Shown: piece after piece, positions 2,448 to 31,207 of the stretch
Layout of the letters: the number at the start of each line of letters is the position of its first letter
Numbering within the stretch: the first letter of the stretch is position 1
NCBI GenBank assembly: GCA_037481775.1
Contig: JBBFKZ010000016.1
Location: forward strand, 1 to 33,413
From: Candidatus Bathyarchaeia archaeon
GTDB taxonomy: Archaea; Thermoproteota; Bathyarchaeia; Bathyarchaeales; Bathycorpusculaceae
DNA length: 33,413 nucleotides
Direction: 5' to 3'
Made by a program: the position numbers and the translations under genes
Notes under the pieces: generated by a model
Told to the model about the DNA's origin: nothing
What the model saw: the letters and a program-made list of their open reading frames with translations, nothing else
Databases searched by the model: none

Positions 2448-2858
2448 TTACCAGCTTCGTAGAACTATCATGGTGTTGGTTTTCATTATGCCTTCTACTC
2501 TGCGAATTTTCTCTACGCACTCGTTGACTTCGACAACGTTCATTCCGCTGATAACTGCAACAATATCGTATTCGCCGGTTACTTCGTAGACGGTTTCTAC
2601 GTTTGGAATTTCCTGTATTTTCTTGGAGACTTCTTGTGTTGGTAAGGACGGATCGGTTGCTAATAGCGTAATTGCCTCTGCCCCTTCTGCTATGCCGATT
2701 TTAACTGTGAACTTTCTTATCACGCCAGAATGTGTAAGCTCCTTGATTCTTTTTCTAACCGCGCCTTCTGATAAGCCAACTTGTTTGCCGATGGCGGCGT
2801 AGCCAGCGCGGCCATCCTCCTTTAAAATTTGCAGTATTTGCTTGTCTTTGTCGTCCAT
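2448..2858 (-). CDS. lysM: Lrp/AsnC family transcriptional regulator, LysM-like
   Basis: N-terminal HTH (MDDKDKQILQILKEDGR...GLSEGAVRKRI), C-terminal RAM domain (VYEVTGEYDI); divergent from lysW cluster, like Sulfolobales LysM. Confidence 0.85.
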   Translation of the reverse strand: MDDKDKQILQILKEDGRAGYAAIGKQVGLSEGAVRKRIKELTHSGVIRKFTVKIGIAEGAEAITLLATDPSLPTQEVSKKIQEIPNVETVYEVTGEYDIVAVISGMNVVEVNECVEKIRRVEGIMKTNTMIVLRSW

Positions 2859-3002
2859 TAGGTTTTCCCCATGTGTTTGTGTATCGTGTAGAATTTAACG
2901 ATTTCTGCATTTGACTACGTCTGACTATTACGGATTCCCGTCGTGGTTTGTGGTTTACGTGCCTGTTTTCGGAAAGCTGGGCAAGTTTGCACTGTTAGGA
3001 TT

Positions 3003-3061
3003 TGTTCTAAATGGAACATTAGCAGCGTAATATGTTACAAATAAGTCGCAACATTTAAAAG
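3003..3061 (+). promoter_or_regulatory. lysW promoter: palindrome TGTTC-N6-GAACA + BRE + TATA
   Basis: TGTTCTAAATGGAACA (3003-3018), AAGTCGCAA (3043-3051), TTTAAAAG (3054-3061); same architecture recurs at 13233-13295. Confidence 0.7.
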
Positions 3062-3158
3062 AAAGACGGGTAAATGAAAATGACATTTCCAATAGATAAA
3101 ATGTGATAAGCAAATGATTAAACAAAATGCACATACAAAACCCCAAGAGGTGAAAGTA

Positions 3159-3335
3159 ATGTACAAGAGTAGATGCCCCGATTGCGACGCTGAACTTGAT
3201 GTGCCGTCAGACACAGAGACAGGCGAGATCTTAAGTTGTCCAAGCTGCGGGCTTGAGCTTGAAGTGAAGCAGATAAAAGGCGGATGCGTTGACCTTCAAG
3301 AGCTAACTATGGAAGGAGAAGACTGGGGCGAATAA
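3159..3335 (+). CDS. lysW: Amino-group carrier protein LysW (alpha-aminoadipate/glutamate carrier)
   Basis: 58 aa from ATG 3159 after SD GAGGTGA; CPDC/CPSC zinc ribbon, acidic, C-terminal EDWGE. Confidence 0.97.
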   Translation: MYKSRCPDCDAELDVPSDTETGEILSCPSCGLELEVKQIKGGCVDLQELTMEGEDWGE

Positions 3336-3416
3336 AATATTCACCTCTAAGCTTGAAACTGACTTTGTTTCTCAAGTTTTTTAATAACCAACTTTTCCAT
3401 GGGATGCCGGCAATCA

Positions 3417-4595
3417 ATGAGTATAGCACTTCTTTATGAACATTCAGAAACCGATGAAATGGGCATAAAGCTCACCGCGCAAGACTTGGGTATAGATTTA
3501 GTTTTCCTGCCGTTCCGCAAAATCGCCCTCGTCATAGGCAAGACTGACTTCACAGCTAAAACTAAAGGAAAAGATTACACCAGCTTAATCAAAGATGCGG
3601 TGGTGGTGCTTAACCGCGCGCAAAGCAAAAACCGTCGGTTACAAGCAGGATACTTTATGGAGATGCTTGGCAAGAAAACCATAAACACAAGCCAAATAGA
3701 ATTCATTTGCTATAGCAAATTGCGCACGCTGCTGCATTTTTGGATTGCAGGGCTTCCCATTCCAAAAACCGTTTACGTGCCCTGCGACGCGGTTGACACT
3801 TTGAAAAGCGGCAGTTTAATCCACAACGAAAAAGACATCGCTGATCTGCTGCAGAACGAGCTTGCCATTGAAGAGGGAATCGTGATAAAGCCTGACGCTG
3901 GAACACATGGGAAAGGCATGGTACTCGCAAGAAATCGCGAGCAGCTTGTTACCAGCATTCAAGAAACGAAGCCTTCGATAATAAATCCCGTGGGCATCGT
4001 TGCGCAAGAGTTAATTCAAAAGTGGTTTTACGATTTGCGGATTATAGTTTCAAAGGAGAAAGGTAAAGCGCCAGTTTGTCATCCCGTGGCTTTAGCAAGA
4101 GGCGGCTTCAGAGATTTTCGAACAAACACCTACTTGGGCAACACAGTTTTCGACGCCCGAATTCCACTAAACATTAGAGAGTTGGCTGTTAAATGCGGTC
4201 AAGCTCTGGGGAAGGATGCTGAAGCTTGGGTTTTCGCCTTAGACGCCATGATTAACGTCGGCGAAAACAAAACCGTGGATGATGTGGCACTCATCTCTGA
4301 ACTGCAAAAGGCAGAGGAGGAATATGAAAAAGTGCGTGTCGTTAAGCAGGATGAAACTCGGCTTAGAGACTTCCAAAGCTGGAATCGCCTATTAGAAGAG
4401 GCTTTCCAGCGTTACAAGAGCACTAAACCCTACGAGAAAATTAAAAGCATAATTGAAGAAAGCATCGAGAAAAACAGCGACCGCGTAGTCTTCCATGAAG
4501 CTAACTCTTGCCCAGAATTCTGGGAGCACACGCGGCTAATAGCTGGCATGAACGTGGCAGTGCCGCTGTTGAAGTGCGCGCAAAGCCTAATCTAG
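3417..4595 (+). CDS. lysX: LysX/ArgX-like ATP-grasp (RimK family) LysW ligase, divergent with large insertion
   Basis: LPIPKT, VIKPDAGTHGKG, QELI, DLRI, FRTN, EANSCPEF ATP-grasp motifs; lies between lysW and lysY. Start 3417 (MSIALLYE) preferred; 3399 possible. Confidence 0.8.
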   Translation: MSIALLYEHSETDEMGIKLTAQDLGIDLVFLPFRKIALVIGKTDFTAKTKGKDYTSLIKDAVVVLNRAQSKNRRLQAGYFMEMLGKKTINTSQIEFICYSKLRTLLHFWIAGLPIPKTVYVPCDAVDTLKSGSLIHNEKDIADLLQNELAIEEGIVIKPDAGTHGKGMVLARNREQLVTSIQETKPSIINPVGIVAQELIQKWFYDLRIIVSKEKGKAPVCHPVALARGGFRDFRTNTYLGNTVFDARIPLNIRELAVKCGQALGKDAEAWVFALDAMINVGENKTVDDVALISELQKAEEEYEKVRVVKQDETRLRDFQSWNRLLEEAFQRYKSTKPYEKIKSIIEESIEKNSDRVVFHEANSCPEFWEHTRLIAGMNVAVPLLKCAQSLI

Positions 4596-4620
4596 TCAAA
4601 GTAACATAAGGTGTGGCGAG

Positions 4621-5676
4621 ATGTTGAGAATAGGAATAATTGGGGGAACAGGCTACGTCGGCGGAGAACTCCTACGCCTGCTGCTGCTCCATCCAGAAGT
4701 TGAAATCACAATGGTTACTTCCCGCCAGAGCGTAGGAGAATACATATTCAATGTGCATCCGAACCTACGCGGGCTAACACAGATGAAATTCGTGCCTCAG
4801 GACATAACGGAGCTTAAGAAAAACTGCGACCTCGTGTTCACTGCGACTCCTCACGGCGGCTCAGTGAACCTTGTTCCTAAACTTCTGGAAGCAGGGCTTA
4901 AGGTAATTGACATGAGCGCCGATTTTCGCCTGAAAAACCCTGTGGACTACGAAACCTACTACGGCTGGAAGCATGCGTATCCGGAATTGCTTAAAGAAGC
5001 CGTGTACGGCTTGCCCGAGTTGCATCGGGAAGAAATCAAAACCGCTCGGCTCGTAGCGTGCGCGGGCTGCGAGGCTACTGCCGCCATTTTAGCTCTAGCG
5101 CCAATAGCTAAAGCCGGCTTAATCGATAAGGATAAAATTGTGGTGGACATAAAAGTGGGTTCTTCGGGCGGCGGCAGCAAACCCACATCGGCTTCGCATC
5201 ATCCAGAACGCTTCGGCGGCGTGCGACCCTACAAGGTTGTTGGGCACCGGCACATCGCCGAGGTGGAACAGGAACTGAATGCGTTGGGCAGCGATCAGGT
5301 AAAGATTTCCTTCACGCCGCATGCGGTGAACATGGTGCGTGGCATACTGGCTACCATACACACTTTTCCAAAGCAGCCCATAGCTGCTAAGGACATCTGG
5401 CGCGTCCTCCGCGGAATGTACGGTAACGAGCCATTTATCCGATTAGTCAAGTATCAAAAGGGACCTTACCAGCTGCCTGACCCGAAAATCACTTTGGGCA
5501 CAAACTTCTGCGACATAGGCTTCGAAATCGACGAGCATGCAAACCGCCTCATACTTTTCTCAGCGCTGGATAACATGGTTAAGGGCGCCTCAGGCCAGGG
5601 CGTCCAGTGCCTAAACATCATGATGGGCATAGACGAAACCACCGGCCTCAAAAGCACGGGATTCCATCCGATGTGA
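4621..5676 (+). CDS. lysY: [LysW]-aminoadipate/glutamate phosphate reductase (LysY/ArgC)
   Basis: GGTGYVG Rossmann motif, DMSADFR, ACAGC catalytic Cys, GSSGGG, HRHIAE, DNMVKGASGQ. Confidence 0.95.
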   Translation: MLRIGIIGGTGYVGGELLRLLLLHPEVEITMVTSRQSVGEYIFNVHPNLRGLTQMKFVPQDITELKKNCDLVFTATPHGGSVNLVPKLLEAGLKVIDMSADFRLKNPVDYETYYGWKHAYPELLKEAVYGLPELHREEIKTARLVACAGCEATAAILALAPIAKAGLIDKDKIVVDIKVGSSGGGSKPTSASHHPERFGGVRPYKVVGHRHIAEVEQELNALGSDQVKISFTPHAVNMVRGILATIHTFPKQPIAAKDIWRVLRGMYGNEPFIRLVKYQKGPYQLPDPKITLGTNFCDIGFEIDEHANRLILFSALDNMVKGASGQGVQCLNIMMGIDETTGLKSTGFHPM

Positions 5677-5682
5677 TAGCCT

Positions 5683-6492
5683 ATGTTGCTTGTAATCAAG
5701 ATGGGCGGAAGCATACTCAAAGAAGGCGCGTCTTCAGAGCTTGTTGCAGACTTGAAGGCGCTGGCGCAGGAGCATAAGCTGGTTCTCGTTCACGGAGGCG
5801 GCGCCGAAGTCACTGAAACCGCCAATAAGCTGGGTAAGGAGCAGCAGTTTATCGTTTCGCCTGAGGGCTTCCGAAGCCGCTATACTGACAAGGAAACCAT
5901 AGAAATCTACATCATGGTCATGGCTGGAAAAATTAACAAGCAAATCGTCGCGGCGCTACAGAGCCAAGGCATAGCCACCATAGGCCTGTCAGGCTTGGAC
6001 GCTGCGCTTTTGAAGGCTGAGCGTAAAAAACGCTTAATAATTGTGGATGAGCGTGGGCGAAAAAAGGTTATTGACGGCGGCTACACCGGAAAAATAACAG
6101 AGGTTAACGTAGACCTCCTAAAGTTTCTGCTTGAAAAGGGCTACGTGCCTGTTGTAACGCCCATAGCTCTAAGCGAAGAATTTGAACCGTTAAACGTGGA
6201 CGGCGACCGAACAGCCGCCGTGATCGCCGCTGCTCTCAAAGCAGACCGCTTAGTTCTGCTGACTGATGTGGAGGGTTTACTGCTGAAAGGTAAGCTCGTC
6301 CCGAGGATAACTGCAGCGGAAGCGGAAGATTCTCTCTCAAACATTGGTAAGGGCATGAGCACCAAGGTGCATGCTGCTTTGGAAGCGCTTAAGCAAGGCG
6401 TCAAGGAAGTGCTGATAACCTCCGGCGTCAAGCCGCAGCCGATTTCCTCCGCGTTAAAGCATGAAGCTGGAACAGTGATGGCAAGTGAATGA
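5683..6492 (+). CDS. lysZ: [LysW]-aminoadipate/glutamate kinase (LysZ/ArgB)
   Basis: VIKMGG, VHGGG, SRYTD, GGYTGKI, LNVDGDR; basic RKK patch typical of LysW-binding kinases. Confidence 0.95.
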   Translation: MLLVIKMGGSILKEGASSELVADLKALAQEHKLVLVHGGGAEVTETANKLGKEQQFIVSPEGFRSRYTDKETIEIYIMVMAGKINKQIVAALQSQGIATIGLSGLDAALLKAERKKRLIIVDERGRKKVIDGGYTGKITEVNVDLLKFLLEKGYVPVVTPIALSEEFEPLNVDGDRTAAVIAAALKADRLVLLTDVEGLLLKGKLVPRITAAEAEDSLSNIGKGMSTKVHAALEALKQGVKEVLITSGVKPQPISSALKHEAGTVMASE

Positions 6493-7696
6493 ATACGACA
6501 TAATGAACTTCGAAAACAGGTTAATGGCGAATGTTTTCTCTAAGCGTCCCGTGGTGATAACGCGCGGCAAGGGCGCCTTAGTCTGGGACATAAACGGCAA
6601 AGAATACATTGACTGTATGGGCAGCTACGGCGTGGCCCTGCTGGGGCACTCGCACCCGAAAGTGGTGGAAGCCATATGCAAGCAGGCGGAGACACTTATT
6701 TCCTGCCACGCCAGCCTCTACAATGACAAGCGAACCGAGTTTCTGCAAAAGCTCATCAGCATCATGCCACAGGGCTTGAACAAGGCGTTTCTCTCGAACA
6801 GCGGTGCGGAATCCGTTGAGTGCGCCATAAAGTTGGCTAGAAAATTCACAGGCAAACCCGAAATAATCGCTGTCATGGGCGCCTTTCACGGCAAAACCAT
6901 GGGCGCGCTGTCCGCGACATGGGACAAAAAATACCGCGAGCCCTTCCAGCCTCTGGTTCCAGAATTCAAGCACGTGCCTCCTGACAACCTTGAAAAGCTA
7001 CGTGAAGCAATAACCGACAAGACGGCTGCTGTGCTTCTGGAGCCAATACGCGGCGAAGGCGGCGTACGCGTTCCACCCGCCGAATATCTGCCTGGCGTCC
7101 GAGAAATCTGCGATGAGCACAACGTCCTCCTAATCTTGGATGAAGTGCAAACAAGCTTCGGCCGAACTGGCAGAGTCTTCGCATGCGAACACTGGGGCGT
7201 AATACCCGACGTAATGTGCTTGGCTAAGCCGTTTGCAGGCGGCTTGCCGATAGGCATAACAGTGGCGAAAGAAGCCATCATGTCCTCCTTTGGTCTCGGC
7301 GAGCACACAAGCACCTTCAGCGGAAGCCCTCTGGTTTGCGCCGCTGCATGCGCCGCCATCGACGTGCTGATAAACGAGCGGCTTGTGGATAGAGCCGCGG
7401 AACTCGGAGGCTACTTCAAGGCTAAGCTGGAGGTGTTGCAGGCTAAGCATAAGATTGTGAAGGAAGTTCGCGGCTTAGGCCTGATGCTGGGCATGGAACT
7501 TCGCTATGACGTCCGAAACATTATAGTCAAAACTTTAGCAAAGGGCGTGCTAATTTTGGAAGCAGGCCGAAACGTTCTACGCTTCCTACCGCCCTTAGTC
7601 ATCGAGAAAGAGCACATCGACCGGGTCATCACCGTGCTTGACGAAGTTTTAGGTGAAGAAGAAAGTGAACGACAAGGCAGTGCAGTTTCTAATTAA
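6485..7696 (+). CDS. lysJ: [LysW]-semialdehyde transaminase (LysJ/ArgD), class III PLP aminotransferase
   Basis: GTG start overlapping lysZ; NSGAES, FHGKT, EPIRGEGG, DEVQT, LAKP (PLP Lys). Confidence 0.95.
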   Translation: MNEYDIMNFENRLMANVFSKRPVVITRGKGALVWDINGKEYIDCMGSYGVALLGHSHPKVVEAICKQAETLISCHASLYNDKRTEFLQKLISIMPQGLNKAFLSNSGAESVECAIKLARKFTGKPEIIAVMGAFHGKTMGALSATWDKKYREPFQPLVPEFKHVPPDNLEKLREAITDKTAAVLLEPIRGEGGVRVPPAEYLPGVREICDEHNVLLILDEVQTSFGRTGRVFACEHWGVIPDVMCLAKPFAGGLPIGITVAKEAIMSSFGLGEHTSTFSGSPLVCAAACAAIDVLINERLVDRAAELGGYFKAKLEVLQAKHKIVKEVRGLGLMLGMELRYDVRNIIVKTLAKGVLILEAGRNVLRFLPPLVIEKEHIDRVITVLDEVLGEEESERQGSAVSN

Positions 7697-8789
7697 CCTG
7701 CTTGGCATTTACAGCCCTTCAGGCAAAGAGGAAGCCATAGGCAACTTTCTCGCCGAAGAAATGATGAAGATGGGCTTCCAGGTTGGCGTCGACAGCGTCG
7801 GAAACGTAATCGGCGTGATCGGCGAAGGCGAACCGGTCATTCTCTTATGTGGGCACATGGACACCGTGGCAGGGCATATTCCGCTGCGGGTTGAGGACGG
7901 TAAAATCTACGCTCGAGGCGCAGTGGACGCCAAGGGGCCTCTCGCAGCTATGGTTATGGCTGCCGCCTCAGTGGGCAAAGACTCTGCATTTAAAGGGAAA
8001 ATTTTAGTCGTCGGCGCCGTGGAAGAAGAGGCTACAAGCCGCGGCATTCGGCATTTGATAACGCAGGGAATAAAAGCTGACTACGCCATATTCGGCGAGC
8101 CCAGCGGTGTTGAACACATAACCGTAGGCTACAAGGGGCAAGTTCAGCTTAGAATAGTTGTGAAGACTGATACTGGTCATGCTTCTACGCCTTGGCTTTA
8201 CGATAATGCGCTGGACAAAGCATACGAGCTCTGGCAGCAAATTAAGACTGCCTATTCTTACTCTCCGTCGGGTAACCAGAATGGTGAAAGCCCTTTTTAC
8301 GCTGTAACCGCCTGCCTCACAAAGTTGACTGGTGGAAGAGCAGACTCCGTAATACCCTTCGAAAGCGAAATGGCCATCGACATCAGAGTGCCGCCTCAGT
8401 TTACCACTGCGCAAATTATTGAACAAACGCGGAAAATAATTGCCCAGTATCAGGCAAGCAACCCAAAAGTTGCGGTAAAAGCATCTGTTCATGATGCTGT
8501 GGAACCGTTTGAAGTGAACAAGAACTCGCTGCTGGTTCACGCGCTGTCAGCAGCAATTAGAAAAATACGCAACAAACCAGCCACGTTAATGCGGAAAACT
8601 GGGACAGGCGACATGAACATTCTCGGTAACGCCATGAACCTGCCCATAGTCACCTATGGCCCAGGCGATTCACATCTAGACCACAGAACAGACGAGCACA
8701 TCGTCATAAGCGAGTATCTGGACAGCATCCAAATTTATAGAGAAACACTTCTGAAGCTTTCGGAGCTGCATAATAAAGATAAAAGTTAA
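7665..8789 (+). CDS. lysK: [LysW]-lysine/ornithine hydrolase (LysK, M20 family)
   Basis: GHMDTV, RGAVDAKG, EEE, GEP, TGTGDMN, YGPGDS..DH...EH; GTG 7665 follows SD AGGTGA (7651-7656). Confidence 0.93.
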   Translation: MNDKAVQFLINLLGIYSPSGKEEAIGNFLAEEMMKMGFQVGVDSVGNVIGVIGEGEPVILLCGHMDTVAGHIPLRVEDGKIYARGAVDAKGPLAAMVMAAASVGKDSAFKGKILVVGAVEEEATSRGIRHLITQGIKADYAIFGEPSGVEHITVGYKGQVQLRIVVKTDTGHASTPWLYDNALDKAYELWQQIKTAYSYSPSGNQNGESPFYAVTACLTKLTGGRADSVIPFESEMAIDIRVPPQFTTAQIIEQTRKIIAQYQASNPKVAVKASVHDAVEPFEVNKNSLLVHALSAAIRKIRNKPATLMRKTGTGDMNILGNAMNLPIVTYGPGDSHLDHRTDEHIVISEYLDSIQIYRETLLKLSELHNKDKS

Positions 8790-8798
8790 CAGGCCGCG

Positions 8799-10208
8799 CT
8801 ACATTTTGTCCAGCTTGAATTCCTCGTGGATTGCGCGGACTGCGGCTTCGCCATCCTTTTCTTTGACCACGAATGAAATATTAAGCTCTGAGGAGCCCTG
8901 CGCAATCATTCGGATGTTTATTCCCTTCTTTGCCAACGCCGTGAATATCCTCGACGCCACGCCAGGTGTGCCCTTCATGTTTGCGCCCATAGCGGCGATA
9001 ACGCAGACGTCGTCTTCATCCGTGATTTCGCTGACCATGCCTCTGCCGAGAAGCGCTATTTCCAGCGCGCTGAGCGCTCTGCCCAACAAGTTTCGGCGTA
9101 TTATCAACGATACGTTTGCCTCGGAGACCGCGGCGGAAATCATCATGACGTTGATGTTGCTTTTGCCCAGAACATCAAGAACTTTAGCGTAGCTTCCTGG
9201 AGCACCAACCATCGCTGCGCCTTTAATGTTAATCATCGCTACATCTCTTATCATCGCCACCGCCTTTACCACGTCCTTAGATGCGGCTTCTTGCCCGTCT
9301 GCTATGAGGGTGCCTGGATTTTCAGGGTTAAAGACGTTTCTTATTCGCACGGGGATGCGCGCTTCAGCTACGGGCTCCAGGGCGCTTGGATGCATTGCCT
9401 TGGCTCCGAAAATGGCCATTTCAGCGGCTTCTCCGAAAGAAAGTTGCGGCAACGTTTTGGCTGAAGGCACAATCTTCGGGTCAGTTGTCATAATGCCGTC
9501 TACGTCGGTCCATATCCAGACTTCGTCGGCGGATAGCGCTACGCTGAGGATTGTAGCCGTGTAATCTGATCCGCCGCGTCCTAGCGTGGTGACTATGCCG
9601 TCTTGGGTTGCAGCTATGTATCCCGTTACAACAGGCACAATTTTTTTCTCAAGTAGCGGTTCAAGCCTTTCGCGCACGTGATGCGTGGTAACATTCATTA
9701 GCGGCCGCGCTTCTCCGAAATTGTCATCTGTCACTATTCCTGCCTCTTTCCCGGTGAAATACTGTGTGGGCACTTTGATGTTCCGTAGGGCGCCCCAAAC
9801 TAATGGCGCAGACAGTCTCTCGCCAAAGGATAAAACGTAATCTTTTGATTTAGGTGTAACTTCGCCGACGTAGCAGATGCCCATAAGCACTTTCTCAAGT
9901 TCGTCAACCGTTTTCTTGATTACCTGCTTTACTTCTTTCTGTATGCCTTCATCCTCTATTGCTTTCTCAGCCGTTTCCAAGTGCCGCTCTGCTAATTGTC
10001 GTGTGAATTCTTGAACTTTCTTTTCGCTTTGCTTTTTTGCTTGTTCCGCTTCTTCTAGTAGCTGGTTTGTTACTCCTGCTAAAGCGGAAACCACCACTAC
10101 TACGCTGTAGCCTTTTTTCACGTTTTCCGCTACTATGCTGGCTACTCGGCGGATGTTCTCGCCTGTAGCAACTGATGTTCCACCAAACTTCATAACTACT
10201 TTCTTCAT
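8799..10208 (-). CDS. lysC: Aspartate kinase, monofunctional, two C-terminal ACT domains
   Basis: VMKFGGTSV, VVSA, SFGERLS, TLGRGGSDYTA, WTDVDGI; ACT repeats (QGSSE). Confidence 0.95.
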   Translation of the reverse strand: MKKVVMKFGGTSVATGENIRRVASIVAENVKKGYSVVVVVSALAGVTNQLLEEAEQAKKQSEKKVQEFTRQLAERHLETAEKAIEDEGIQKEVKQVIKKTVDELEKVLMGICYVGEVTPKSKDYVLSFGERLSAPLVWGALRNIKVPTQYFTGKEAGIVTDDNFGEARPLMNVTTHHVRERLEPLLEKKIVPVVTGYIAATQDGIVTTLGRGGSDYTATILSVALSADEVWIWTDVDGIMTTDPKIVPSAKTLPQLSFGEAAEMAIFGAKAMHPSALEPVAEARIPVRIRNVFNPENPGTLIADGQEAASKDVVKAVAMIRDVAMINIKGAAMVGAPGSYAKVLDVLGKSNINVMMISAAVSEANVSLIIRRNLLGRALSALEIALLGRGMVSEITDEDDVCVIAAMGANMKGTPGVASRIFTALAKKGINIRMIAQGSSELNISFVVKEKDGEAAVRAIHEEFKLDKM

Positions 10209-10225
10209 GTTTCATCCTTCCATTG

Positions 10226-11257
10226 CTATGAGAGCATTTTGCTTGCTAGTCTACGTCTTATTTCTAGCAAGTCCCTTAAAACTGCACTGGCGGTTTCTAT
10301 GCCGCCGGCGCCCTTTCCAACAAGTGTCTGCTCCCCAGCGAATTCAGTGTAGAAGGTTACTGCGTTCAGTACGCCGCTGACGCATAAGGGGCTGTTTTTC
10401 GGTATCTCCATCGGCTTAACGGTTGGCTTGCCTTTTCCGTCTATTGCGCCTATGAGCTTTATGGTGTTGCCTCTTTTTGCTGCTTCATCAAGCGCCTGCA
10501 GTGTCACATCGCGGATGCCTGTTCTATCCACGTCCCTTAGCGTTACCTTCTTGTTCATCACCCAGTTGGTCAGAATAACAATTTTACATGCAGTATCAAA
10601 TCCTTCAATATCCATGGTTGGGTCTGTCTCTGCGTAGCCGAGCTTCTGCGCGTTTGCAAGCGCTTCTTGGAAGGACACGCGATTTTGCGCCATTTCCGTC
10701 AGTATATAATTGGTTGTGCCGTTTAGTATACCCTTTATGGCTAAGATTTTGTCTCCTGCGAGGCAACGCTTGGCAAACTCCAGCATGGGTGTCCCGCCGC
10801 CGACTGTTCCGCTGAACCGCAGGTAAACATTGTTGTATTCAGCTAATTCCATAAGCGCTGGCAACGCTAGGGCTAACGGTCCCTTATTGGTGGTGACAAC
10901 ATGCTTTCCAGTTTTGAACGCCGTTGTAATATGCGACATGGCGGGCTCGCCGTTTTTGATGTTAACCGGCGTGACTTCAACAACAACTTCTGCTTCAACG
11001 GACTCGATTACGTCTAACGCTGTCATTCCTGGGTGCCCAAACTCCGGATCTGCTGATATTGGAGCGCCTTTTTGCCTAAGCGTCTCTAGCTTTTCAGTGC
11101 TTAGTCCCCTTGGGTTGATTACTGCGCCATCTATATCGACGATGGCAACGATTTTCGGATTAAACCCGTAATCCTTAACTTTCTCCGCATACCGCCGGGC
11201 TAGTATTGCCGTTACGCTTTTGCCAACCACGCCAAACCCAATCAGGATAATCCTCAT
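10226..11257 (-). CDS. hom: Homoserine dehydrogenase
   Basis: IGFGVVG, VVTTNKGP, TVGGGTP, GILNGTTNYIL, GYAETDP, GKGAGG. ATG 11257 (GTG 11263 alternative). Confidence 0.95.
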   Translation of the reverse strand: MRIILIGFGVVGKSVTAILARRYAEKVKDYGFNPKIVAIVDIDGAVINPRGLSTEKLETLRQKGAPISADPEFGHPGMTALDVIESVEAEVVVEVTPVNIKNGEPAMSHITTAFKTGKHVVTTNKGPLALALPALMELAEYNNVYLRFSGTVGGGTPMLEFAKRCLAGDKILAIKGILNGTTNYILTEMAQNRVSFQEALANAQKLGYAETDPTMDIEGFDTACKIVILTNWVMNKKVTLRDVDRTGIRDVTLQALDEAAKRGNTIKLIGAIDGKGKPTVKPMEIPKNSPLCVSGVLNAVTFYTEFAGEQTLVGKGAGGIETASAVLRDLLEIRRRLASKMLS

Positions 11258-11264
11258 GCCCACT

Positions 11265-12515
11265 TCACCTTGCCATGACTTCTATGGCTCTCTTTAATCC
11301 TAAAACATCTTCGATAGCCGCCATTTCCGCATCGACTTCCACAGGCTTCTCGCTCATCTTAACCGCGGTATCTGGGTCTTTAAGTCCATGGCCCGTGGTT
11401 ACACAGACTACGCGTTCATCCTTGTCTATCACGCCGTTTTCAACGAGCTTTATCAAACCCGCAATCGATGAAGCGCTTGCCGGCTCAACAAATAAGCCCT
11501 CAATTCTCGCAAGCAACTTCTGCGCGCTTAAAATCTCCTCGTCAGTCACGGTTTCAGCAGTCCCCTTCGACTCCCGTATGGCGTTTAACGCTTTTTTCCA
11601 GCTTACCGGCGCGCCTATTCGTATGGCGGTTGCAACGGTTTCAGGCGAAGCGACAGGCACGATGGTGTCGCTTCCAGTCTTTATTGCCCGCGCTATTGGC
11701 GCTGCACCCGCCGCCTGTATCCCCGTCATCTTTGGAAGCCCCTTCACAAAGCCAAGCTCGTGGAACTCCTTGAAGCCTTTCCAAATGGCGCTTATGTTCC
11801 CTGCGTTTCCAACCGGCACAATAACCCTATCTGGCGCTTCCTGGTTCAGCTGATCGCAGATTTCGAAGCCCAGCGACTTTTGCCCTTCAATTCTGAATGG
11901 GTTAACCGAGTTTAGTAGGTAAATGGTCCGGTGCTTCTCTGAAAGCTTAAGCACAATATCCAAGGCTTGGTCAAAGTTGCCGCGCACTTGAATGACCTTC
12001 GCGCCGTAGATCATGGCTTGCGAAAGTTTTCCGTATGCAATTTTGCCTGAAGGTATCAAAACTGCGCATTGTAACCCTGCCTTCGCTGCGTAAGCCGCCA
12101 ACGATGCCGAGGTGTTGCCTGTAGACGCGCATATAACGGATTTAACGCCTAGCTCAACAGCTTTGGTTACGCCGACGGTCATGCCTCTGTCCTTGAAGGA
12201 GCCTGTGGGGTTTTCACCCTCATTTTTCACATAAAGCTCGCGCAGCCCCAGATGTTTTGCCAAGCGCAAGCATGGATGAAGCCCTGTGCCTCCCTCATTT
12301 AATGAAACAATTTTTGAGGCGTCACTTATAGGCATGAAGTCTCGGTAACGCCACACTGAAAGCGGCGCCTTCCGCCAATCGCTTCCCTTAAGTGCTTTAC
12401 TCAATTCCTTATATTCATATTTTATTTCAAGTATGTCTCCGCATTTTCTGCAGAAGTACACAATTTCATTTACATCGTATGTGCTTCCGCAGTTAATGCA
12501 AACCTGCTTAGCCAC
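11265..12515 (-). CDS. thrC: Threonine synthase with N-terminal Zn-ribbon
   Basis: CINC/CRKC, NPTGSFKDRG PLP Lys, ASTGNT, PVGNAGN, TGHGLKD; GTG 12515 follows SD GAGGTG. Confidence 0.95.
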   Translation of the reverse strand: MAKQVCINCGSTYDVNEIVYFCRKCGDILEIKYEYKELSKALKGSDWRKAPLSVWRYRDFMPISDASKIVSLNEGGTGLHPCLRLAKHLGLRELYVKNEGENPTGSFKDRGMTVGVTKAVELGVKSVICASTGNTSASLAAYAAKAGLQCAVLIPSGKIAYGKLSQAMIYGAKVIQVRGNFDQALDIVLKLSEKHRTIYLLNSVNPFRIEGQKSLGFEICDQLNQEAPDRVIVPVGNAGNISAIWKGFKEFHELGFVKGLPKMTGIQAAGAAPIARAIKTGSDTIVPVASPETVATAIRIGAPVSWKKALNAIRESKGTAETVTDEEILSAQKLLARIEGLFVEPASASSIAGLIKLVENGVIDKDERVVCVTTGHGLKDPDTAVKMSEKPVEVDAEMAAIEDVLGLKRAIEVMAR

Positions 12516-12647
12516 TACATCCACCTCTTTAACCTGAATATTCCGCGTGCATCGCTTTTGCCGTGGTTGGCAAACAGTATCAAATTGTAAGTATTAACAC
12601 TATTGTTGGTTTCCAGCGCTATTCGCCGCCGCGAAAGCATCTGCGCA

Positions 12648-13226
12648 TCACCCTACTAGGTTGGACAGAACCTCGTAAGCTTTGAGGCTGTCCTTTTTTT
12701 CTACAACAATTATTGTTTCTGTCCAGCAGGAGATGAACTCTATGATGTTCACGTTTTGCTCCGCCAGCAACGTCGTTAAGAAGGCAACAACTCCTGGCGT
12801 AGCTTCCAACTCTTCAGGCGAATGAATTACTATCATTGTGCAATTATCATGCTTGACAAGCGCGTTAATTCTCTCAGGCATGTCGCTTCTGTCGAGAAGG
12901 TAAACGTACTTGCCGAGCAAGTCTACTTTCATCCCGTTTTTGGTGTTCAATTCCTTGCTTGTTATCATAACGGCTTTTCTGTCATAAACTGCTATTCCGC
13001 TCCGCTTCAGCACCTGCAGAACTTTTTCTTCCCTTTTCTGCTTATGCTTTTGAAGGTCTTCTGCAAACCTTCGCAAGGCCGCTTTTATGGCGCTGGTGTT
13101 GTCTATTTTCAGCTCTTTCTGGATTTGGCGGGCTAGCTCGCTGAGGTTAACTATGCCCTTTTCCAGCGCCTCCAGCAGATACGGCTTGTTTTGAAGGTGA
13201 CTTCTCACAGTTTTAGCTATTGGCAT
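12648..13226 (-). CDS. Predicted amino-acid-sensing regulator: N-terminal HTH-like region + C-terminal ACT domain
   Basis: GIVNLSELARQI...SAIKAALRR helix-turn-helix-like segment; TPGVVAFLTTLLAEQNVNIIEFISCWTETIIVV ACT fold; ATG 13226 lies 27 nt downstream of TTTAAA (13253-13258), consistent with a leaderless mRNA. Confidence 0.7.
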   Translation of the reverse strand: MPIAKTVRSHLQNKPYLLEALEKGIVNLSELARQIQKELKIDNTSAIKAALRRFAEDLQKHKQKREEKVLQVLKRSGIAVYDRKAVMITSKELNTKNGMKVDLLGKYVYLLDRSDMPERINALVKHDNCTMIVIHSPEELEATPGVVAFLTTLLAEQNVNIIEFISCWTETIIVVEKKDSLKAYEVLSNLVG

Positions 13227-13232
13227 GGTGCA

Positions 13233-13295
13233 TAAATGTATCAAATGGAACATTTAAAGCTTGTTAAGTCACAAAAAAGTCGCAATGTTTAAAAA
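13233..13295 (+). promoter_or_regulatory. Divergent argG / HTH-ACT promoter with palindrome TAAATGT-N10-ACATTTA, BRE and TATA
   Basis: Palindrome 13233-13256; AAGTCGCAA 13277-13285; TTTAAAAA 13288-13295; aligns ungapped with the lysW promoter. Confidence 0.7.
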
Positions 13296-13348
13296 CACCG
13301 CCCCCGAGGTAAGGGAAATAAATTTCATTCAAAAAGCGGGGGAGCAAA

Positions 13349-14572
13349 ACGACCGAAAAAATCGTATTGGCCTACTCAGGCGGACTAGACACGTCCGTGA
13401 TGATTAAGTGGCTTCAAGAAAAATATAACGCCGACGTGATAACCGTAACAGCCAACGTCGGCCAGCCAGAAGATCTAAAGGAAATTGAGGCAAAAGCGAA
13501 AAAACTAGGTGCCTTAAAACACTACTCAATAGACGCCAAAGAGGAATTCGCTAAAGATTACGTTTTTCCAGCAATAAAAGCCAACGCACTGTACGAGGGA
13601 AAGTATCCCATAAGCACCAGCCTCTCTCGGCCGCTTATAGCCCAGAAGATGGTTGAAATCGCAGAAAAAGAAGGCGCAACCGGCTTAGCACATGGATGCA
13701 CAGGCAAAGGCAACGATCAAGTGCGCTTTGACGTAACATTGGGCGCGTTGGCGCCGGACTTAAAGATCATTGCACCTGTCCGCGAATGGAACATGACCCG
13801 CGAAGAAGAAATCGAATATGCGAAAGCCAAGGGCATTCCAGTTTCCAATGCAGCAAAGAAATATAGCATAGACCAAAGCATCTGGGGCAGGTCCATCGAG
13901 TGCGGTGTATTGGAAGATGCCAGCAAAGAACCGCCTGAAGACGCTTTCGAATGGACTGTCTCGCCTGAGAAAGCGCCGGACAAACCAGAATACGTTACCA
14001 TCCAATTTGAAGCAGGCGTCCCTGTTGCCTTGAACGGCAAGAAGCTTGATCCTCTCACGCTTATTGAAACATTAAATAAGACCGCGGGAAAGCATGGCAT
14101 CGGCCGCATAGACCACATAGAGGACCGCTTGGTCGGCATCAAATCACGAGAAATCTATGAGTGCCCAGCCGCCACCGTCATCATAGAAGCACACAAGGAC
14201 CTGGAAAAGATGGTTTTAACGCGGCATGAAGTCTTGTTCAAGCAGCAAATTGACGCCCAATGGACATTTCTGGCTTACGCGGGCTTGTGGGTGGAGCCTC
14301 TAAAAGAAGATCTTGACGCCTTCATAAACAAAACTCAGGAAAAAGTCAACGGAGAAGTCCGTGTGAAACTATACAAGGGCGGGCTTCAAATAGTAGGCCG
14401 CTCATCGCCGATGTCGCTTTACGACAAGAATCTGGTTAATTATAACATAAAAACCGGCTTTAACCCTGCTTACTCCAAAGGATTCATTGAACTTTGGGGT
14501 CTGCAAACCAGAATGGCTAATATTCTGAAAAGAAAAGCTAAGCAGCAAAAAGGCACTGCGGGAGGCGAGTAA
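13349..14572 (+). CDS. argG: Argininosuccinate synthase (probable non-canonical ACG start)
   Basis: KIVLAYSGGLDTS, HGCTGKGNDQVRF, SIECGVLED, GIKSREIYE. The ORF-track TTG (13367) is the Leu of the conserved KIVLAYS motif; in-frame TAA at 13319-13321. Confidence 0.95.
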   Translation, partial: TTEKIVLAYSGGLDTSVMIKWLQEKYNADVITVTANVGQPEDLKEIEAKAKKLGALKHYSIDAKEEFAKDYVFPAIKANALYEGKYPISTSLSRPLIAQKMVEIAEKEGATGLAHGCTGKGNDQVRFDVTLGALAPDLKIIAPVREWNMTREEEIEYAKAKGIPVSNAAKKYSIDQSIWGRSIECGVLEDASKEPPEDAFEWTVSPEKAPDKPEYVTIQFEAGVPVALNGKKLDPLTLIETLNKTAGKHGIGRIDHIEDRLVGIKSREIYECPAATVIIEAHKDLEKMVLTRHEVLFKQQIDAQWTFLAYAGLWVEPLKEDLDAFINKTQEKVNGEVRVKLYKGGLQIVGRSSPMSLYDKNLVNYNIKTGFNPAYSKGFIELWGLQTRMANILKRKAKQQKGTAGGE

Positions 14573-16056
14573 TGTCAAAGCTGCTGCGAGGCGGACGCTT
14601 ATCAGCGGTACGCGAGGACGTTGCAAAGTTCACCTCCTCAATGAAGGATGACCTGCGGCTGGCAGAAGCCGTAATCGCCATCAACAAGGCTCACGTAATA
14701 ATGCTAATGGAGCAGAAAATTCTTAAGCAATCAGACGGCGCCCAGCTTCTGCAAGCGCTCGCCAAATGCTCCAGCACGGCCTTGGATGCTTCAGCGGAAG
14801 ATGTTCACATGGCTGTGGAGGAAGCAGTGCTCCGAGAGGTAGGCGAGACAGTAGGCGGAAACCTTCATATCGCTAAAAGCCGAAACGATCAGGTTTCCAC
14901 CGCCATTCGCATTGAACTGCGGAAGGAGCTACTTAATCTTATGCGTGCCGTGGCTCACGTGCAAGAGCATCTGATAGAAGTTGCAGAAGACCATTTGAAA
15001 ACCGTCATCTTAGAGTACACGCATCTGCAACCGGCGCAACCAGTAACATTTGCTCATTACCTGATGTCGCATTGCGCTGCGTTGGAACGCGATCTTGAGC
15101 GTCTCCAAAACGTTTACGCACGGGTTAACCTCTGCCCGCTTGGCGCAGGCGCACTGGCAACAACAAGCTTCCCAATAAACCGCGACAGAACTGCGGCGCT
15201 TCTAGGCTTCGCCGGAGTAGCTGAAAATTCCATCGACGCCGTTGGCAGCCGGGACTTCATAATAGAAACCCTTGCTGTGCTTACGCTAATCGCCGTTAAC
15301 CTAAGTCGCTTCGCCGAGGACCTAATAATCTGGAGTTCCTCTGACTTTGGCGTGGTGGAGCTGCCGGACGAGTTCACCAGCACAAGCAGCATCATGCCTC
15401 AGAAGAAAAACCCCGAGGTACTGGAGGTCATCCGTGCACGAGCCAGCCATGTGCTAGGCGATTTCGTAGCCGCAGCTGCAGCAGTGAAAAGTTTGCCATC
15501 CACGTATAACCTTGACTTCCAAGAGATAACGCCCAAATTGTGGGCTTCAATAGAATCTGTTCATGCTTCACTGGATATGCTCCATAAGCTGCTGCCCAAA
15601 CTGAAAGTAACGCAGAGTGTTGCGGATAAGGCGAACGCGAGTTTCGTAGCGGCAACCGAGCTTGCCAATCTGCTTGTGCGAAAATATGATGTTTCCTTCA
15701 GAACAGCGCATAAGATAGTCGGCGCCTTTGTTAAAGCGCTAATAGATGCGAAGCTAACTTTCGCGGAAGCTACCTCCGAAATGCTTCAGAAAGCAGCGGA
15801 AAACACTGCAAACATTAAGCTGAAAGTTAAGGCTGAAGAATTGAAGGCGCTTGCTGACCCGCTTGTGCTGGTTGAAGCATGCAAAGTTAAGGGCGGTCCT
15901 GCTCCTGAAGTGGTTGAAAAAGCATTGAATGAATGGAAGGAAAAGTTGCTTCAAACCAAATCCCATATATTGCAGTTAGATAAGCTGCTTGAAAAAGCTG
16001 AAAATGCCTTGGAAGAAGCTGTTTCCGCATATTCCAGTGAAAAACGTAAAACTTAA
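14572..16056 (+). CDS. argH: Argininosuccinate lyase
   Basis: EDVHMAVE, KSRNDQV, YTHLQPAQP, SSIMPQKKNP signature; TAATG coupling to argG. Confidence 0.96.
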   Translation: MSKLLRGGRLSAVREDVAKFTSSMKDDLRLAEAVIAINKAHVIMLMEQKILKQSDGAQLLQALAKCSSTALDASAEDVHMAVEEAVLREVGETVGGNLHIAKSRNDQVSTAIRIELRKELLNLMRAVAHVQEHLIEVAEDHLKTVILEYTHLQPAQPVTFAHYLMSHCAALERDLERLQNVYARVNLCPLGAGALATTSFPINRDRTAALLGFAGVAENSIDAVGSRDFIIETLAVLTLIAVNLSRFAEDLIIWSSSDFGVVELPDEFTSTSSIMPQKKNPEVLEVIRARASHVLGDFVAAAAAVKSLPSTYNLDFQEITPKLWASIESVHASLDMLHKLLPKLKVTQSVADKANASFVAATELANLLVRKYDVSFRTAHKIVGAFVKALIDAKLTFAEATSEMLQKAAENTANIKLKVKAEELKALADPLVLVEACKVKGGPAPEVVEKALNEWKEKLLQTKSHILQLDKLLEKAENALEEAVSAYSSEKRKT

Positions 16057-16085
16057 AAATTCAGAATGGTAGGTAGTATAGGGCT

Positions 16086-17231
16086 TTGGCACCAGAACAA
16101 ACTTCCAGCAAAAACAAGAAAGCGGTTCTACTGTTAGCGGACAGCACTTTCTTCATCGGCAAAGGTTTTGGTGCAGCACGGAAAGTTTCAGGCGAAGTTG
16201 TTTTCTCCACATCAATGGTTGGCTACCCAGAATCGCTCACAGATCCTTCATATAAAGGTCAAATCTTGACCTTAACTTATCCGCTTGTAGGCAATTACGG
16301 CGTTCCACCACGCGATATGAAATTCGGATTGCCCATTTACTTCGAGTCAGACCACATCCAAGTGCAAGGCTTAGTTATCCATGAACTCTGCAATGACCCA
16401 CACCATTGGGCGTCAACGAGAACACTAGACAGGTGGCTGCAAGATGAAGGCGTACCAGGCATTTACGGCGTTGACACCCGGCGTCTCACCAAAAAACTGA
16501 GAACATACGGAGTAATGCTGGGCATTCTACAAGTTTGTGAAGCCGGCGAAGAGCCTAATTTGGAAAATCTTATTCAAGAAGCAAAAATGGGCATTCGAGA
16601 TCCCAATTTAACTGATTTAGTTAAGGAAGTAACCGTGAAGGAACCCATACACTATAATGTGGACGGCAAATATACTGTTGTTCTAATCGACTGTGGCGTC
16701 AAATATAATATTCTGCGGAACCTGCTGAAGCGCGGTATCAACGTTATAAGAGTTCCCTACAACTTCTCAGCGAAAGAAATCCTGGAGTATCATCCGAACG
16801 GCGTTTTCCTGAGTAACGGTCCAGGCGACCCGAAAAAATGCGTTAGCACCATCCAATGCGTCAGCGAGCTTGTCGATAAAGTTCCGATGATGGGCATCTG
16901 CTTGGGTGCTCAGATACTCGCGCTGGCAGTAGGAGGCGACACCTACAAACTAAAGTATGGGCATCGCTCCCAAAACCAGCCTGCGCTAGACTTGAAGACT
17001 AACCGTTGCTACATCACCACGCAGAACCACGGTTACGCCATCGACACAGAATGCTTCTGCAGAATACCGCTGGAGCCATGGTTCATAAACGCCAACGACA
17101 AAACCATAGAGGGCGTGAAGCACAAGAGCAAACCTGCTTTTGCCGTGCAATGGCATCCCGAAGCTGCGCCAGGACCATACGACACCGAATTCCTCTTTGA
17201 CGAATTCAAGAAACTAATGGAGGCTGCTTGA
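16086..17231 (+). CDS. carA: Carbamoyl-phosphate synthase small (glutaminase) subunit
   Basis: GEVVFST.M.GYPESLTDPSY.GQ, LSNGPGDP, GICLG nucleophile Cys, QWHPE; TTG start. Confidence 0.96.
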   Translation: MAPEQTSSKNKKAVLLLADSTFFIGKGFGAARKVSGEVVFSTSMVGYPESLTDPSYKGQILTLTYPLVGNYGVPPRDMKFGLPIYFESDHIQVQGLVIHELCNDPHHWASTRTLDRWLQDEGVPGIYGVDTRRLTKKLRTYGVMLGILQVCEAGEEPNLENLIQEAKMGIRDPNLTDLVKEVTVKEPIHYNVDGKYTVVLIDCGVKYNILRNLLKRGINVIRVPYNFSAKEILEYHPNGVFLSNGPGDPKKCVSTIQCVSELVDKVPMMGICLGAQILALAVGGDTYKLKYGHRSQNQPALDLKTNRCYITTQNHGYAIDTECFCRIPLEPWFINANDKTIEGVKHKSKPAFAVQWHPEAAPGPYDTEFLFDEFKKLMEAA

Positions 17232-17232
17232 A

Positions 17233-20200: not shown

Positions 20201-20499
20201 CAGTTCTACATAAGGTCAAAGAAGCCAGTGCAAGCCCGAACATTCTTGATTATCTTCGTGATCAAAAAATCGATTTGGTCATAAACGTGCCAATGGGAAG
20301 TAAGAACAAGAGCTATTCCGATGTTTTGACAGATGGCTACATAATCAGACGGCAAGCAGTGGAATTCAACGTTCCAGTCATTACGAATCTGGAGTTAGCC
20401 GCCGCGCTTGTTAAGGTCTTACAACAGCAAGGCAACAATGGTGCTACAATTCGTTCTTTGAACGAGTACATGAGTGAATTGCCTTGGCGGCTCTGGTAA
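17233..20499 (+). CDS. carB: Carbamoyl-phosphate synthase large subunit
   Basis: GSGAIKIGEAAEFDYSG, two ATP-grasp halves (HTGDS, HSGD), NPETVSTDYD, C-terminal MGS domain; GTG start. Confidence 0.97.
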   Translation: MPKFDWIRKVLVLGSGAIKIGEAAEFDYSGSQCLKALREEGIETVLVNPNVATIQTDPRLSGKVYLLPVTPEYVEKVIQKERPDGILLGFGGQTALNCGVELAQRGVFDKYNVKVLGTPVESIERTSNRELFKQVMADANAHPLRSKSATTVKDAIAAAEEIGYPVIVRVAYTLGGKGAGVAHNAWELKEIVTRGLAQSRITQVLVEEYVGHWKELEYEVMRDYADNCLIICNMENLDPMGVHTGDSIVIAPSQTLTNREYHLMRSASINAIRALGIIGECNIQWALHPKSEEFRVIEVNSRMSRSSALASKVTGYPLAYIATKLSIGYLLPELINKVTGVTTACFEPALDYVTIKIPRWDLQKFKNADRHIGPQMRSVGEVMAIGRCIEEALQKAVRMLDLGKKGLVCNDDEDEPEPIETINDVLANPTDERLFKIVKAIKMGISIEEIYRLSGVDPFFLYKIKNIIDMERKLRKLNLDDSDAAEILREAKRLGFSDEQIAICLKTDQFTIRAFRKKAGITPVVKQIDTLAAEWPAKTNYLYMTYGGDEDDLEFSRHESKVIVLGAGVFRIGSSVEFDWCGVNTIWALKKNDIKEAIMVNYNPETVSTDYDISDKLYFEELTVERILDIYEKEQPLGVIASVGGQIPNNLALKLANAGVKLLGTSAENIDLAEDRSKFSALLDELGIPQPGWSKLTSIDAAKRFAEKIGYPVIVRPSYVLSGSAMRVAYDETALENFLKLAAKVSREHPVVISKFIEKAKEVEVDGVSDGENVIIGAIMEHVENAGVHSGDATMSIPPHTLSPEIQQKIEECTQKIVKALSIKGPYNIQYLVKDGVVHVIECNLRASRSMPFVSKTRGVNLIELATLAMLGKKIELKKLPPAMHVGVKVPQFSFMRLSGADPVLGVEMLSTGEVACLGENFAEAFSKALQAAEFRIPPKGGSVLITVGGEEPKRRVVPIAKAFEEMGFKIYATAHTAEVLRAEGIKNVTVLHKVKEASASPNILDYLRDQKIDLVINVPMGSKNKSYSDVLTDGYIIRRQAVEFNVPVITNLELAAALVKVLQQQGNNGATIRSLNEYMSELPWRLW

Positions 20500-24837: not shown

Positions 24838-24838
24838 G

Positions 24839-25543: not shown

Positions 25544-25555
25544 AAAGTGATAAAC

Positions 25556-26875: not shown

Positions 26876-26888
26876 AGGCCATAACCAA

Positions 26889-29075: not shown

Positions 29076-29076
29076 A

Positions 29077-29673: not shown

Positions 29674-29724
29674 TTTTATTAACGCTATATGCGATATTAG
29701 CGAAGAAAAAATGGAGAAGGGATA

Positions 29725-31119: not shown

Positions 31120-31134
31120 GCTTTCTTAATCAAA

Positions 31135-31153: not shown

Positions 31154-31207
31154 GAGTCTCGTATATTTTAAATATTCATCATGAGAAAATAGGTGGGTCG
31201 ATACTGC

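Follow-up and report, generated by a model that had tools for sequence, protein, structure and literature searches.

Two arginine operons share a composite promoter element

The stretch of DNA analysed here (the window, positions 1 to 33,413 of contig JBBFKZ010000016.1 from the Candidatus Bathyarchaeia archaeon assembly GCA_037481775.1) contains two operons that lead to arginine and whose promoters have a 52-bp element in common. One encodes the LysW-dependent ornithine branch and the other argG-argH-carA-carB, and each is divergent from a gene for a possible regulator: an ortholog of lysM, of the Lrp/AsnC family, opposite lysW, and a protein joining a DUF7523 domain to tandem ACT domains (the DUF7523-ACT protein) opposite argG (Table 1). 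An earlier note, made from the sequence without database searches, had already named lysM, lysW and the LysW-pathway genes, argG-argH-carA-carB and the divergent ACT-domain gene, and the NCBIfam and Pfam annotations agree with it. The names of near-identical proteins in databases likewise point to Bathyarchaeia. Genes for aspartate kinase, homoserine dehydrogenase and threonine synthase are also found on the minus strand.

The ungapped alignment of 3009-3060 with 13243-13294, from which the same note had proposed an archaeal arginine regulon, was reproduced with 41/52 identities. When either 52-mer was scanned against both strands of the whole 1.82-Mb assembly (3,637,188 positions), the other copy scored 41/52 and every remaining site at most 32/52. 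The match is therefore real, far beyond chance, and the element is specific to these two promoters; no third composite copy turned up in the genome when the sub-boxes and the full 52-mer were scanned for, exactly or with mismatches.

Both copies contain, in the same register, one 16-bp palindrome with the consensus TGTWYY-AAAT-GGAACA (a 6-4-6 layout with an even centre and half-sites without CG), whose first base lies 51 bp 5' of the TATA box. Their proximal part consists of two AAGTCRCAA-like repeats spaced by 11 bp and abutting the TATA box; at lysW, the second repeat ends 2 bp 5' of TATA and overlaps the position of the transcription factor B recognition element (BRE). The sub-boxes were as first described, namely AAATGGAACATT, identical between the lysW and argG copies, the TTTAAAA boxes and the AwGTyrCAA repeats 11 bp apart. 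The two inverted repeats of that description are likewise present and centred 43.5 bp before TATA, but they are not different from each other: they are the same 16-bp palindrome, and the longer arms of the argG copy (TAAATGT...ACATTTA) are partly due to a second TATA box on the minus strand (TTTAAAT, 13257-13251). The proximal repeats do not belong to promoters of this genome in general: 93 generic ones showed just a preference for A at -5 to -3 before TATA and no GTCRC. We read the 52-bp element as a predicted composite operator within two archaeal BRE/TATA promoters.

The palindrome pattern occurs at three sites in the genome, two of which are the lysW and argG copies. A looser version, TGTNNYAWWTRNNACA, was rejected as a regulon marker: across the 41 genomes compared below it was no commoner than its reversed control (3 versus 6 sites in this genome) and therefore cannot alone define further regulon members.

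Table 1 Features of the two arginine operons and their promoters (positions in the window).
Feature	Position	Strand	Evidence
lysM ortholog, Lrp/AsnC family, divergent from lysW	2448-2858	-	NF040947, 175 bits against a cut-off of 180; Pfam HTH_AsnC and AsnC_trans_reg
Lrp-type box TTACGGATTCCCGTCG, candidate LysM site, separate from the shared element	2928-2943	.	conserved CGG.TT.C block
Distal palindrome, lysW copy, TGTTCTAAATGGAACA	3003-3018	+	sequence; tTGt.c.AaatggAACA in 12 lysM-linked lysW promoters, also in G010 and G016
Proximal box, lysW copy: ATGTTACAA (3032-3040) and AAGTCGCAA (3043-3051)	3032-3051	+	TtAcaAATAAGTCGCAA conserved at >=90%
lysW TATA box, TTTAAAA	3054-3060	+	sequence, conservation
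Operon lysW(argW)-lysX-like-argC/lysY-argB/lysZ-argD/lysJ-argE/lysK, ornithine branch	3114-8789	+	NCBIfam
DUF7523 + tandem-ACT protein, 192 aa, candidate regulator	12648-13226	-	Pfam PF24367 (1.1e-12), PF13840 (2e-10)
Distal palindrome, argG copy, TGTATCAAATGGAACA	13237-13252	.	>=90% at most positions, 73 distinct loci
Regulator-gene TATA box, TTTAAAT	13251-13257	-	function inferred from position
Proximal box, argG copy: AAGTCACAA (13266-13274) and AAGTCGCAA (13277-13285)	13266-13285	+	aGT.ACAAAAAAGTCaCAA conserved
argG TATA box, TTTAAAA	13288-13294	+	sequence, conservation
Operon argG-argH-carA-carB	13349-20499	+	NCBIfam

The element is conserved at both promoters and stays with the regulator gene

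We searched for the element in 40 relatives (genome labels run upward from G000, the genome of the window, and presence counts are given out of 41). Phylogenetic footprinting, by which the regulon of the earlier note could be judged, found it conserved at both orthologous promoters. Before argG it occurs at 12 loci of relatives, belonging to the window's genus and to six other genera of the same family (ArgG 73–96% identical), and 13 genomes, that of the window among them, have it before lysW; it is present at both promoters, with invariant spacing, in about eight genera of one Bathyarchaeia family. Searches with the regulator protein provided 80 further loci from GTDB. Their 73 distinct argG-regulator intergenic sequences are at least 90% conserved nearly throughout, from the palindrome to the TATA box, without any change of length, and ACATTTAAAG, directly 3' of the palindrome, is invariant or nearly so in the 73 loci. 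A cis-regulatory module shared by the two arginine operons is therefore well supported, and we hold it to be highly probable.

Could the likeness of the two promoters be just a relic, the argG/regulator intergenic region having been copied before lysW without any shared regulation? The spacers between the boxes are also alike (CATTAGCAGCGTAAT at lysW and CATTTAAAGCTTGTT at argG, with CATTAAAAGCTTAAT in the lysW copy of G018), which suggests a common descent of the whole module. However, both copies have been conserved with fixed spacing across genera whose ArgG proteins are 73–86% identical, while the flanking intergenic DNA diverged over the same span, and a distant subfamily of the regulator again has an element shared by two promoters, with other half-sites. 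Descent without a regulatory role thus seems very improbable.

The operator at argG overlaps the core promoter of the DUF7523-ACT gene itself and stays with that gene. In two loci from which argG is missing (L115 and L152) and in another where it lies 1.5 kb away (L154), the palindrome and the regulator's TATA box are kept and the proximal box is lost; this persistence without an adjacent argG is the behaviour expected of an autoregulatory operator. The minus-strand TTTAAAT lies 31 nt before the regulator's ATG at 13226, which implies a leaderless or near-leaderless mRNA.

The locus of Candidatus Bathycorpusculum termitum (L151) keeps the full element, followed by a frame that looks like a decayed argG without any tblastn match to ArgG. 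Paired hits in G002 and G007 were discarded as copies of the element because they correspond to an unrelated operator beside a small ribbon-helix-helix-like gene. In both cases (L187, G002:C5:98009-98073; L188, G007:C20:74207-74281) the divergent intergenic region contains a long inverted repeat of the TGTTACAAAT...ATTTGTAACA type, which together with the small gene probably forms another operator-regulator pair.

The element precedes operons that most likely serve arginine rather than lysine

The genome possesses a diaminopimelate pathway for lysine, with dapA and lysA over cut-off, and no match over cut-off to homocitrate synthase; therefore, the LysW route most likely serves ornithine and arginine only. 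The two operons preceded by the element are, the carbamoyltransferase step aside, the only ones making arginine from glutamate. The genes dapA and lysA are found at G000:C7:55782-61150, near an open reading frame of 536 amino acids that includes an ACT region and may encode a second aspartokinase. lysA appears there as two adjacent matches (55955-57025 and 55782-55946), possibly because of a frameshift or a split gene.

A copy of the element had also been predicted before argF. All 11 genomes that have the element elsewhere lack it before their ornithine carbamoyltransferase gene; the arginine regulon, as far as the element defines it, comprises the lysW and argGH-carAB operons and not every unit of arginine biosynthesis. 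The ornithine carbamoyltransferase gene (G000:C18:13004-13906 in this genome, L189-L217 in relatives) is present in 35/41 genomes, and many of the relatives that carry it have no argG or no lysW cluster. A conserved promoter of its own, GGTTTCCATAAAGCTTAT, precedes it, and its role may be catabolic or other.

Whether thrC belongs to the regulon was also considered. Its promoter in this genome has ATTTGATAC in common with the regulator promoter, at an equal distance from TATA, but GATAC is kept at that place in just 20/56 loci, and thrC was dropped. The thrC promoter (12525-12647, minus strand) has its own conserved CAAAATTAATAAT-like sequence and, within the genus, the palindrome ACA(A/G)TTTGATACTGT follows it. 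In 73/80 loci thrC lies next to the regulator gene, with a gap of at least 480 nt in 18 of those.

The bacterial solution to arginine control appears to be missing. The C-terminal domain of ArgR (PF02863) had no match in this genome, which is 96.7% complete, nor in any of the 4 archaeal control genomes, while the same search did find it in 8 bacteria; the view that archaea generally lack ArgR holds as far as tested.

Comparative evidence favours the DUF7523-ACT protein as the reader

The DUF7523-ACT protein is encoded in 19/41 genomes, beside argG every time: it occurs in 19 of the 21 genomes whose argG is complete and in none of the 19 without an argG match. It is also absent from G016, a 74% complete genome with only a fragment of argG. 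In the GTDB set, argG is divergent from the regulator gene in 76/80 loci. LysM has a similar distribution, with orthologs (43–94% identity) in 21 of the 22 relatives with an argG match, the best Lrp match of G028 being 34% identical and those of relatives without argG reaching 31–35% at best. As both proteins co-occur with the arginine genes, the phyletic pattern alone is not decisive.

More informative is the way in which operators and proteins change together. The regulators form a local subfamily, type A, with members at least 63% identical, and a type B that is about 25% identical and 221–244 amino acids long. The region of helix 28-39 reads NLSELARQIQK in type A and NYSAIARMLKP in type B, and the operator half-sites change together with this helix: type-B genomes have TGACCA-N4-TGGTCA over the regulator start (at -9 to -12 relative to it) and TGACCAAAA against the TATA box of the target. 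This layout was seen at argG and carA and also at lysW in G009 and G017, where argG and lysW have the motif in common. The geometry of the type-B operators is close to that described above, with 51–55 bp from palindrome to TATA in 21 promoters versus 51 bp here.

The LysM recognition helix does not show such a correspondence. It is identical (LSEGAVRKRIK) in this genome, G017 and G040 and differs by two residues in G010 and G009, while the type of shared motif differs among those genomes, so the motif does not follow the LysM helix. A separate Lrp-type box travels with lysM instead, in its clearer versions CTACGGATTTCGTAG in G040 and TTACGAAAATCGTAC just before lysM in G017, and a box of this kind is present at 2928-2943 in the window.

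Two studies allowed us to compare these boxes with known sites. The site of Sulfolobus LysM is located 11 bp upstream of the lysW BRE/TATA, in line with what the earlier note had stated for Sulfolobales; LysM activates lysW, its binding responds to arginine also, and its 15-bp palindromic box has C at -4 and G at -3 (PMC3597687). Lrp operators are described as 13–15-bp palindromes with an odd A/T centre (abcde-WWW-e'd'c'b'a'), with optima GTTCGA[AAT/ATT]TCGAAC for FL10 and TACGA[AAT/ATT]TCGTA for TvFL3 (PMC2715240). The box at 2928-2943 fits both the Sulfolobus LysM specificity (PMC3597687) and the TvFL3 optimum (PMC2715240), and the shared palindrome, with its even centre and without CG, fits neither the Lrp layout nor the LysM box.

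These data bear on the possibility that LysM is the reader of the shared element and controls both operons, while the DUF7523-ACT protein does something else. In its favour are the presence of LysM orthologs together with argG, the activation of lysW by Sulfolobus LysM from upstream of the BRE with an arginine-responsive binding (PMC3597687), and the half-sites GTTC...GAAC, which resemble the FL10 optimum (PMC2715240). However, the palindrome has a 6-4-6 layout without CG at -4/-3, unlike the LysM box (PMC3597687), better Lrp-type boxes exist elsewhere, and the LysM helix is identical or nearly so in genomes with different shared motifs. Moreover, the lysW promoters of G010 and G016 have retained the element with no lysM beside them, and the palindrome remains with the DUF7523-ACT gene after the loss of argG. 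We consider LysM unlikely to be the reader; it probably acts separately through the box at 2928-2943, adding another input to the control of lysW.

Between LysM and the ACT protein, a choice that the earlier note had left open, the comparative evidence thus favours the latter, and the element is probably read by the DUF7523-ACT protein encoded divergently from argG. As for the proposal that a single regulator controls both operons, the conserved and specific cis element agrees with it and makes one reader the most economical solution; the argF copy that was part of that proposal did not materialise.

The argG-linked protein belongs to a large family

A profile of the DUF7523-ACT family matched 2,329 sequence clusters at E ≤ 0.001 and 144/301 sampled genomes of the phylum. 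The Pfam DUF7523 model also has a match in Haloferax volcanii. Among the 30 best-scoring of the more distant loci in the phylum, argG is adjacent in 15. The regulator gene is divergent from carA in the three loci checked (L157, L164 and L172) and from the gene of a Lys/Arg/Orn ABC binding protein in L180; in L162, the divergent gene resembles carA, as judged by eye alone. The branch linked to argG and carA spans several families. The family as a whole is broader than arginine control, and a divergent placement by amino-acid-related genes recurs in it. In one family of the phylum (f19), 42/43 sampled genomes have a DUF7523-ACT homolog, whose gene is divergent from Hsp20 in the two loci viewed (L218 and L220). 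Close relatives are named in databases "DUF7523 family protein", "ACT domain-containing protein" or, in one source, "aspartokinase", and a look-up of the family clusters returned "hypothetical protein" only.

Domain structure suggests a ligand-sensing protein

The 192-residue protein matches DUF7523 (PF24367) over residues 3-85, with 49 bits against a cut-off of 27 (51/80 aligned relatives match too), and ACT_7 (PF13840), with 40.8 bits against a cut-off of 27. An AlphaFold model of the whole protein had a mean predicted local distance difference test score (pLDDT) of 96.7 and shows three short helices (3-12, 15-23 and 28-39) and a long one (44-74) ahead of two ACT-like units. Modelled separately, the N-terminal domain has the same three short helices and one long helix (pLDDT 90); it is basic, with 17 K+R versus 9 D+E (net charge +8). 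The C-terminal part (residues about 75-192) resembles the paired ACT domains of aspartate kinases (Foldseek E about 1e-6, template modelling score 0.45–0.5), and the sequence profile matched 3l76 with an E of 1.6e-10. This part is predicted with confidence to be a tandem ACT fold, a ligand-sensing module. A homodimer prediction of the regulator scored 0.29, against a mark of 0.42.

These features and the comparative data point to the DUF7523-ACT protein as an autoregulated, probably arginine-sensing regulator of both operons, a reading to which we give a reasonable, not overwhelming, likelihood. We infer that it binds DNA, that arginine is its ligand and that its effect is repression rather than activation. 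The protein would bind as an oligomer to both parts of the element, palindrome and proximal repeats. Before its own gene, the palindrome is placed between TATA box and start codon, the classic position for repression in archaea, so that the bound protein should block polymerase recruitment and produce autorepression. At argG and lysW, occupation of both parts would hide the BRE. Binding of an amino acid, most plausibly arginine, by the ACT domains would strengthen the hold on DNA and thereby shut both operons.

Several observations weigh against this scheme. No helix-turn-helix (HTH) Pfam family matches the N-terminal domain, and Foldseek gave no match for it at E ≤ 0.001. The best VIA structural match had a Z of 6.2 (not significant) and headed a mixed list of helical proteins, among them a LuxR-type DNA-binding domain (Z 5.6) and homeodomains (Z 4.3–5.1). 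The label "HTH" given to this protein in the earlier note could thus not be confirmed, its N-terminal part being DUF7523 without any HTH family or significant fold match, and DNA binding is deduced from genomic context, not from the fold. The ligand could be other than arginine because the ACT pair resembles the threonine- and lysine-binding domains of aspartokinases and because the gene precedes thrC in 73/80 loci of the local subfamily; in four further families, an arginine gene was nearby in 0/8 loci, and the four of those eight that were inspected had Hsp20 (two), a Lys/Arg/Orn binding protein (one) or an oligopeptide-binding protein (one) as divergent gene. As the palindrome differs in sequence from the proximal repeats, each could have a reader of its own. 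The co-occurrence of LysM orthologs with the arginine genes and the distal half-sites GTTC/GAAC, which recall some Lrp boxes, also belong here. Finally, sites just upstream of TATA are typical of archaeal activators too, such as Ptr2 and LysM (PMC2995911), and repression is, given binding, only slightly ahead of activation.

The absence of a recognised DNA-binding family or fold, and the fact that the only significant similarities of the protein are to regulatory ACT pairs of enzymes, would also suit a different role, that of a metabolic regulatory subunit or sensor resembling the beta subunit of aspartokinase, which merely sits on the divergent promoter of argG while another transcription factor reads the element. 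Nevertheless, regulatory subunits are usually co-transcribed with their enzyme, and the DUF7523-ACT gene is divergent from targets as varied as argG, carA and binding-protein genes, with a palindrome over its own start. The covariation of the half-sites with helix 28-39 also speaks against such a role, and the aspartokinase of the window already has ACT domains of its own. In our view, this option is improbable, and we retain the DUF7523-ACT protein as the candidate regulator.

Gene starts and other features of the window

The lysW gene most likely starts at the ATG at 3114, which gives a protein of 73 amino acids with a 15-residue N-terminal extension, and not at the inner ATG at 3159: ATGATTAAACAA is conserved among relatives at the lysW start, and a later ATG is absent from G018. 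Judging by spacing alone, the lysW transcript likely starts in the region of the conserved GACATTTCC (3081-3089). Two more conserved blocks are found in the lysM-lysW spacer, AAAATTTAACGnTTTCTG and TTTTCGGAAA (2888-2906 and 2966-2975), of which AAAATTTAACGnTTTCTG is likely the lysM promoter on the minus strand. The LysX/ArgX-like ligase gene (3399-4595) encodes 398 amino acids with weak matches to RimK/LysX families over residues 9-274 (68–77 bits, below the cut-offs); about 120 C-terminal residues have no family match, and the protein is 49–91% identical in relatives having the lysW cluster.

The argG gene probably starts at a non-canonical codon, the ACG at 13349, located 4 nt past a strong Shine-Dalgarno sequence, GGGGGAG (13338-13344). 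The codon at the conserved start position in 76 loci is ATA in 49, ACG in 13, ATC in 4, ATT in 3, ATG in 3 and another in 4, and no canonical start further downstream is conserved in these loci (the L076-L155 set, corresponding to 13338-13369 in the window).

No Rfam family was over threshold in the window. Its distal part (24100-33413) contains an LIV-type ABC transporter cluster, a phenylacetate-CoA ligase-like gene and the alpha and beta subunits of an indolepyruvate:ferredoxin oxidoreductase, which suggests uptake and fermentation of aromatic amino acids.

Relation to known systems and significance

To our knowledge, arginine control in archaea without ArgR remains largely uncharted, and Sulfolobus LysM is the only studied case near the pathway. 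Searches of the open-access full-text literature yielded no paper naming DUF7523 or describing an archaeal arginine regulator of this type. The proposed system can be compared with bacterial ArgR/AhrC, likewise an amino-acid-sensing regulator acting on palindromic boxes (tandem 18-bp ARG boxes) at scattered arginine and carbamoyl-phosphate operons; ArgR autoregulates, and its paired sites overlap core promoter elements. Unlike in the ArgR system, the candidate protein is an unrelated one (DUF7523 plus tandem ACT), the promoters are archaeal BRE/TATA promoters, and argF is not in the regulon.

The likeness to Sulfolobus LysM lies in an amino-acid-responsive regulator encoded beside lysW, with a site upstream of BRE/TATA (PMC3597687), and an ortholog is present here. 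The LysM box has 15 bp and lies 11 bp from the BRE, whereas the shared element combines a 16-bp palindrome 28 bp from the BRE position with direct repeats (PMC3597687). Moreover, the shared element occurs also at argG and does not follow the unchanged recognition helix of LysM.

With the beta subunit of aspartate kinase, the DUF7523-ACT protein would have in common the fold of residues about 75-192, modelled like the threonine- and lysine-binding ACT pairs; it differs by the lack of a kinase domain, by an additional basic four-helix N-terminal domain and by a gene that is not co-transcribed with an enzyme gene. A last comparison is with CASTOR1, the mammalian cytosolic arginine sensor, which binds arginine between ACT domains. 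It belongs to the same Pfam ACT family (PF13840), its chains gave a weak profile match (E 0.04), and an automatic Atlas cluster name mentions CASTOR; we take this similarity as a lead for the ligand and not as evidence.

In sum, the proposed system would be a case of feedback control in which a ligand-sensing factor governs a biosynthetic regulon, its parts being an uncharacterised family of proteins and a composite operator newly defined here. A wider proposal, which we advance tentatively and hold somewhat less probable than not, is that DUF7523 plus tandem ACT makes up a new archaeal family of amino-acid-sensing transcription factors with a new DNA-binding domain. Its argG/carA branch would be the counterpart of ArgR in Bathyarchaeia and several other lineages of Thermoproteota, acting on a composite operator of fixed geometry (a 6-4-6 palindrome 51–55 bp before TATA and half-sites on the BRE) and sensing arginine through its ACT_7 pair. 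At this locus both the operator and the candidate protein are defined, and the comparative signal is clear. If the proposal is true, a function would be assigned to a family of more than 2,300 clusters, which roughly half of the phylum's sampled genomes possess, and the operator would become a usable regulon marker for annotating uncultured archaea.

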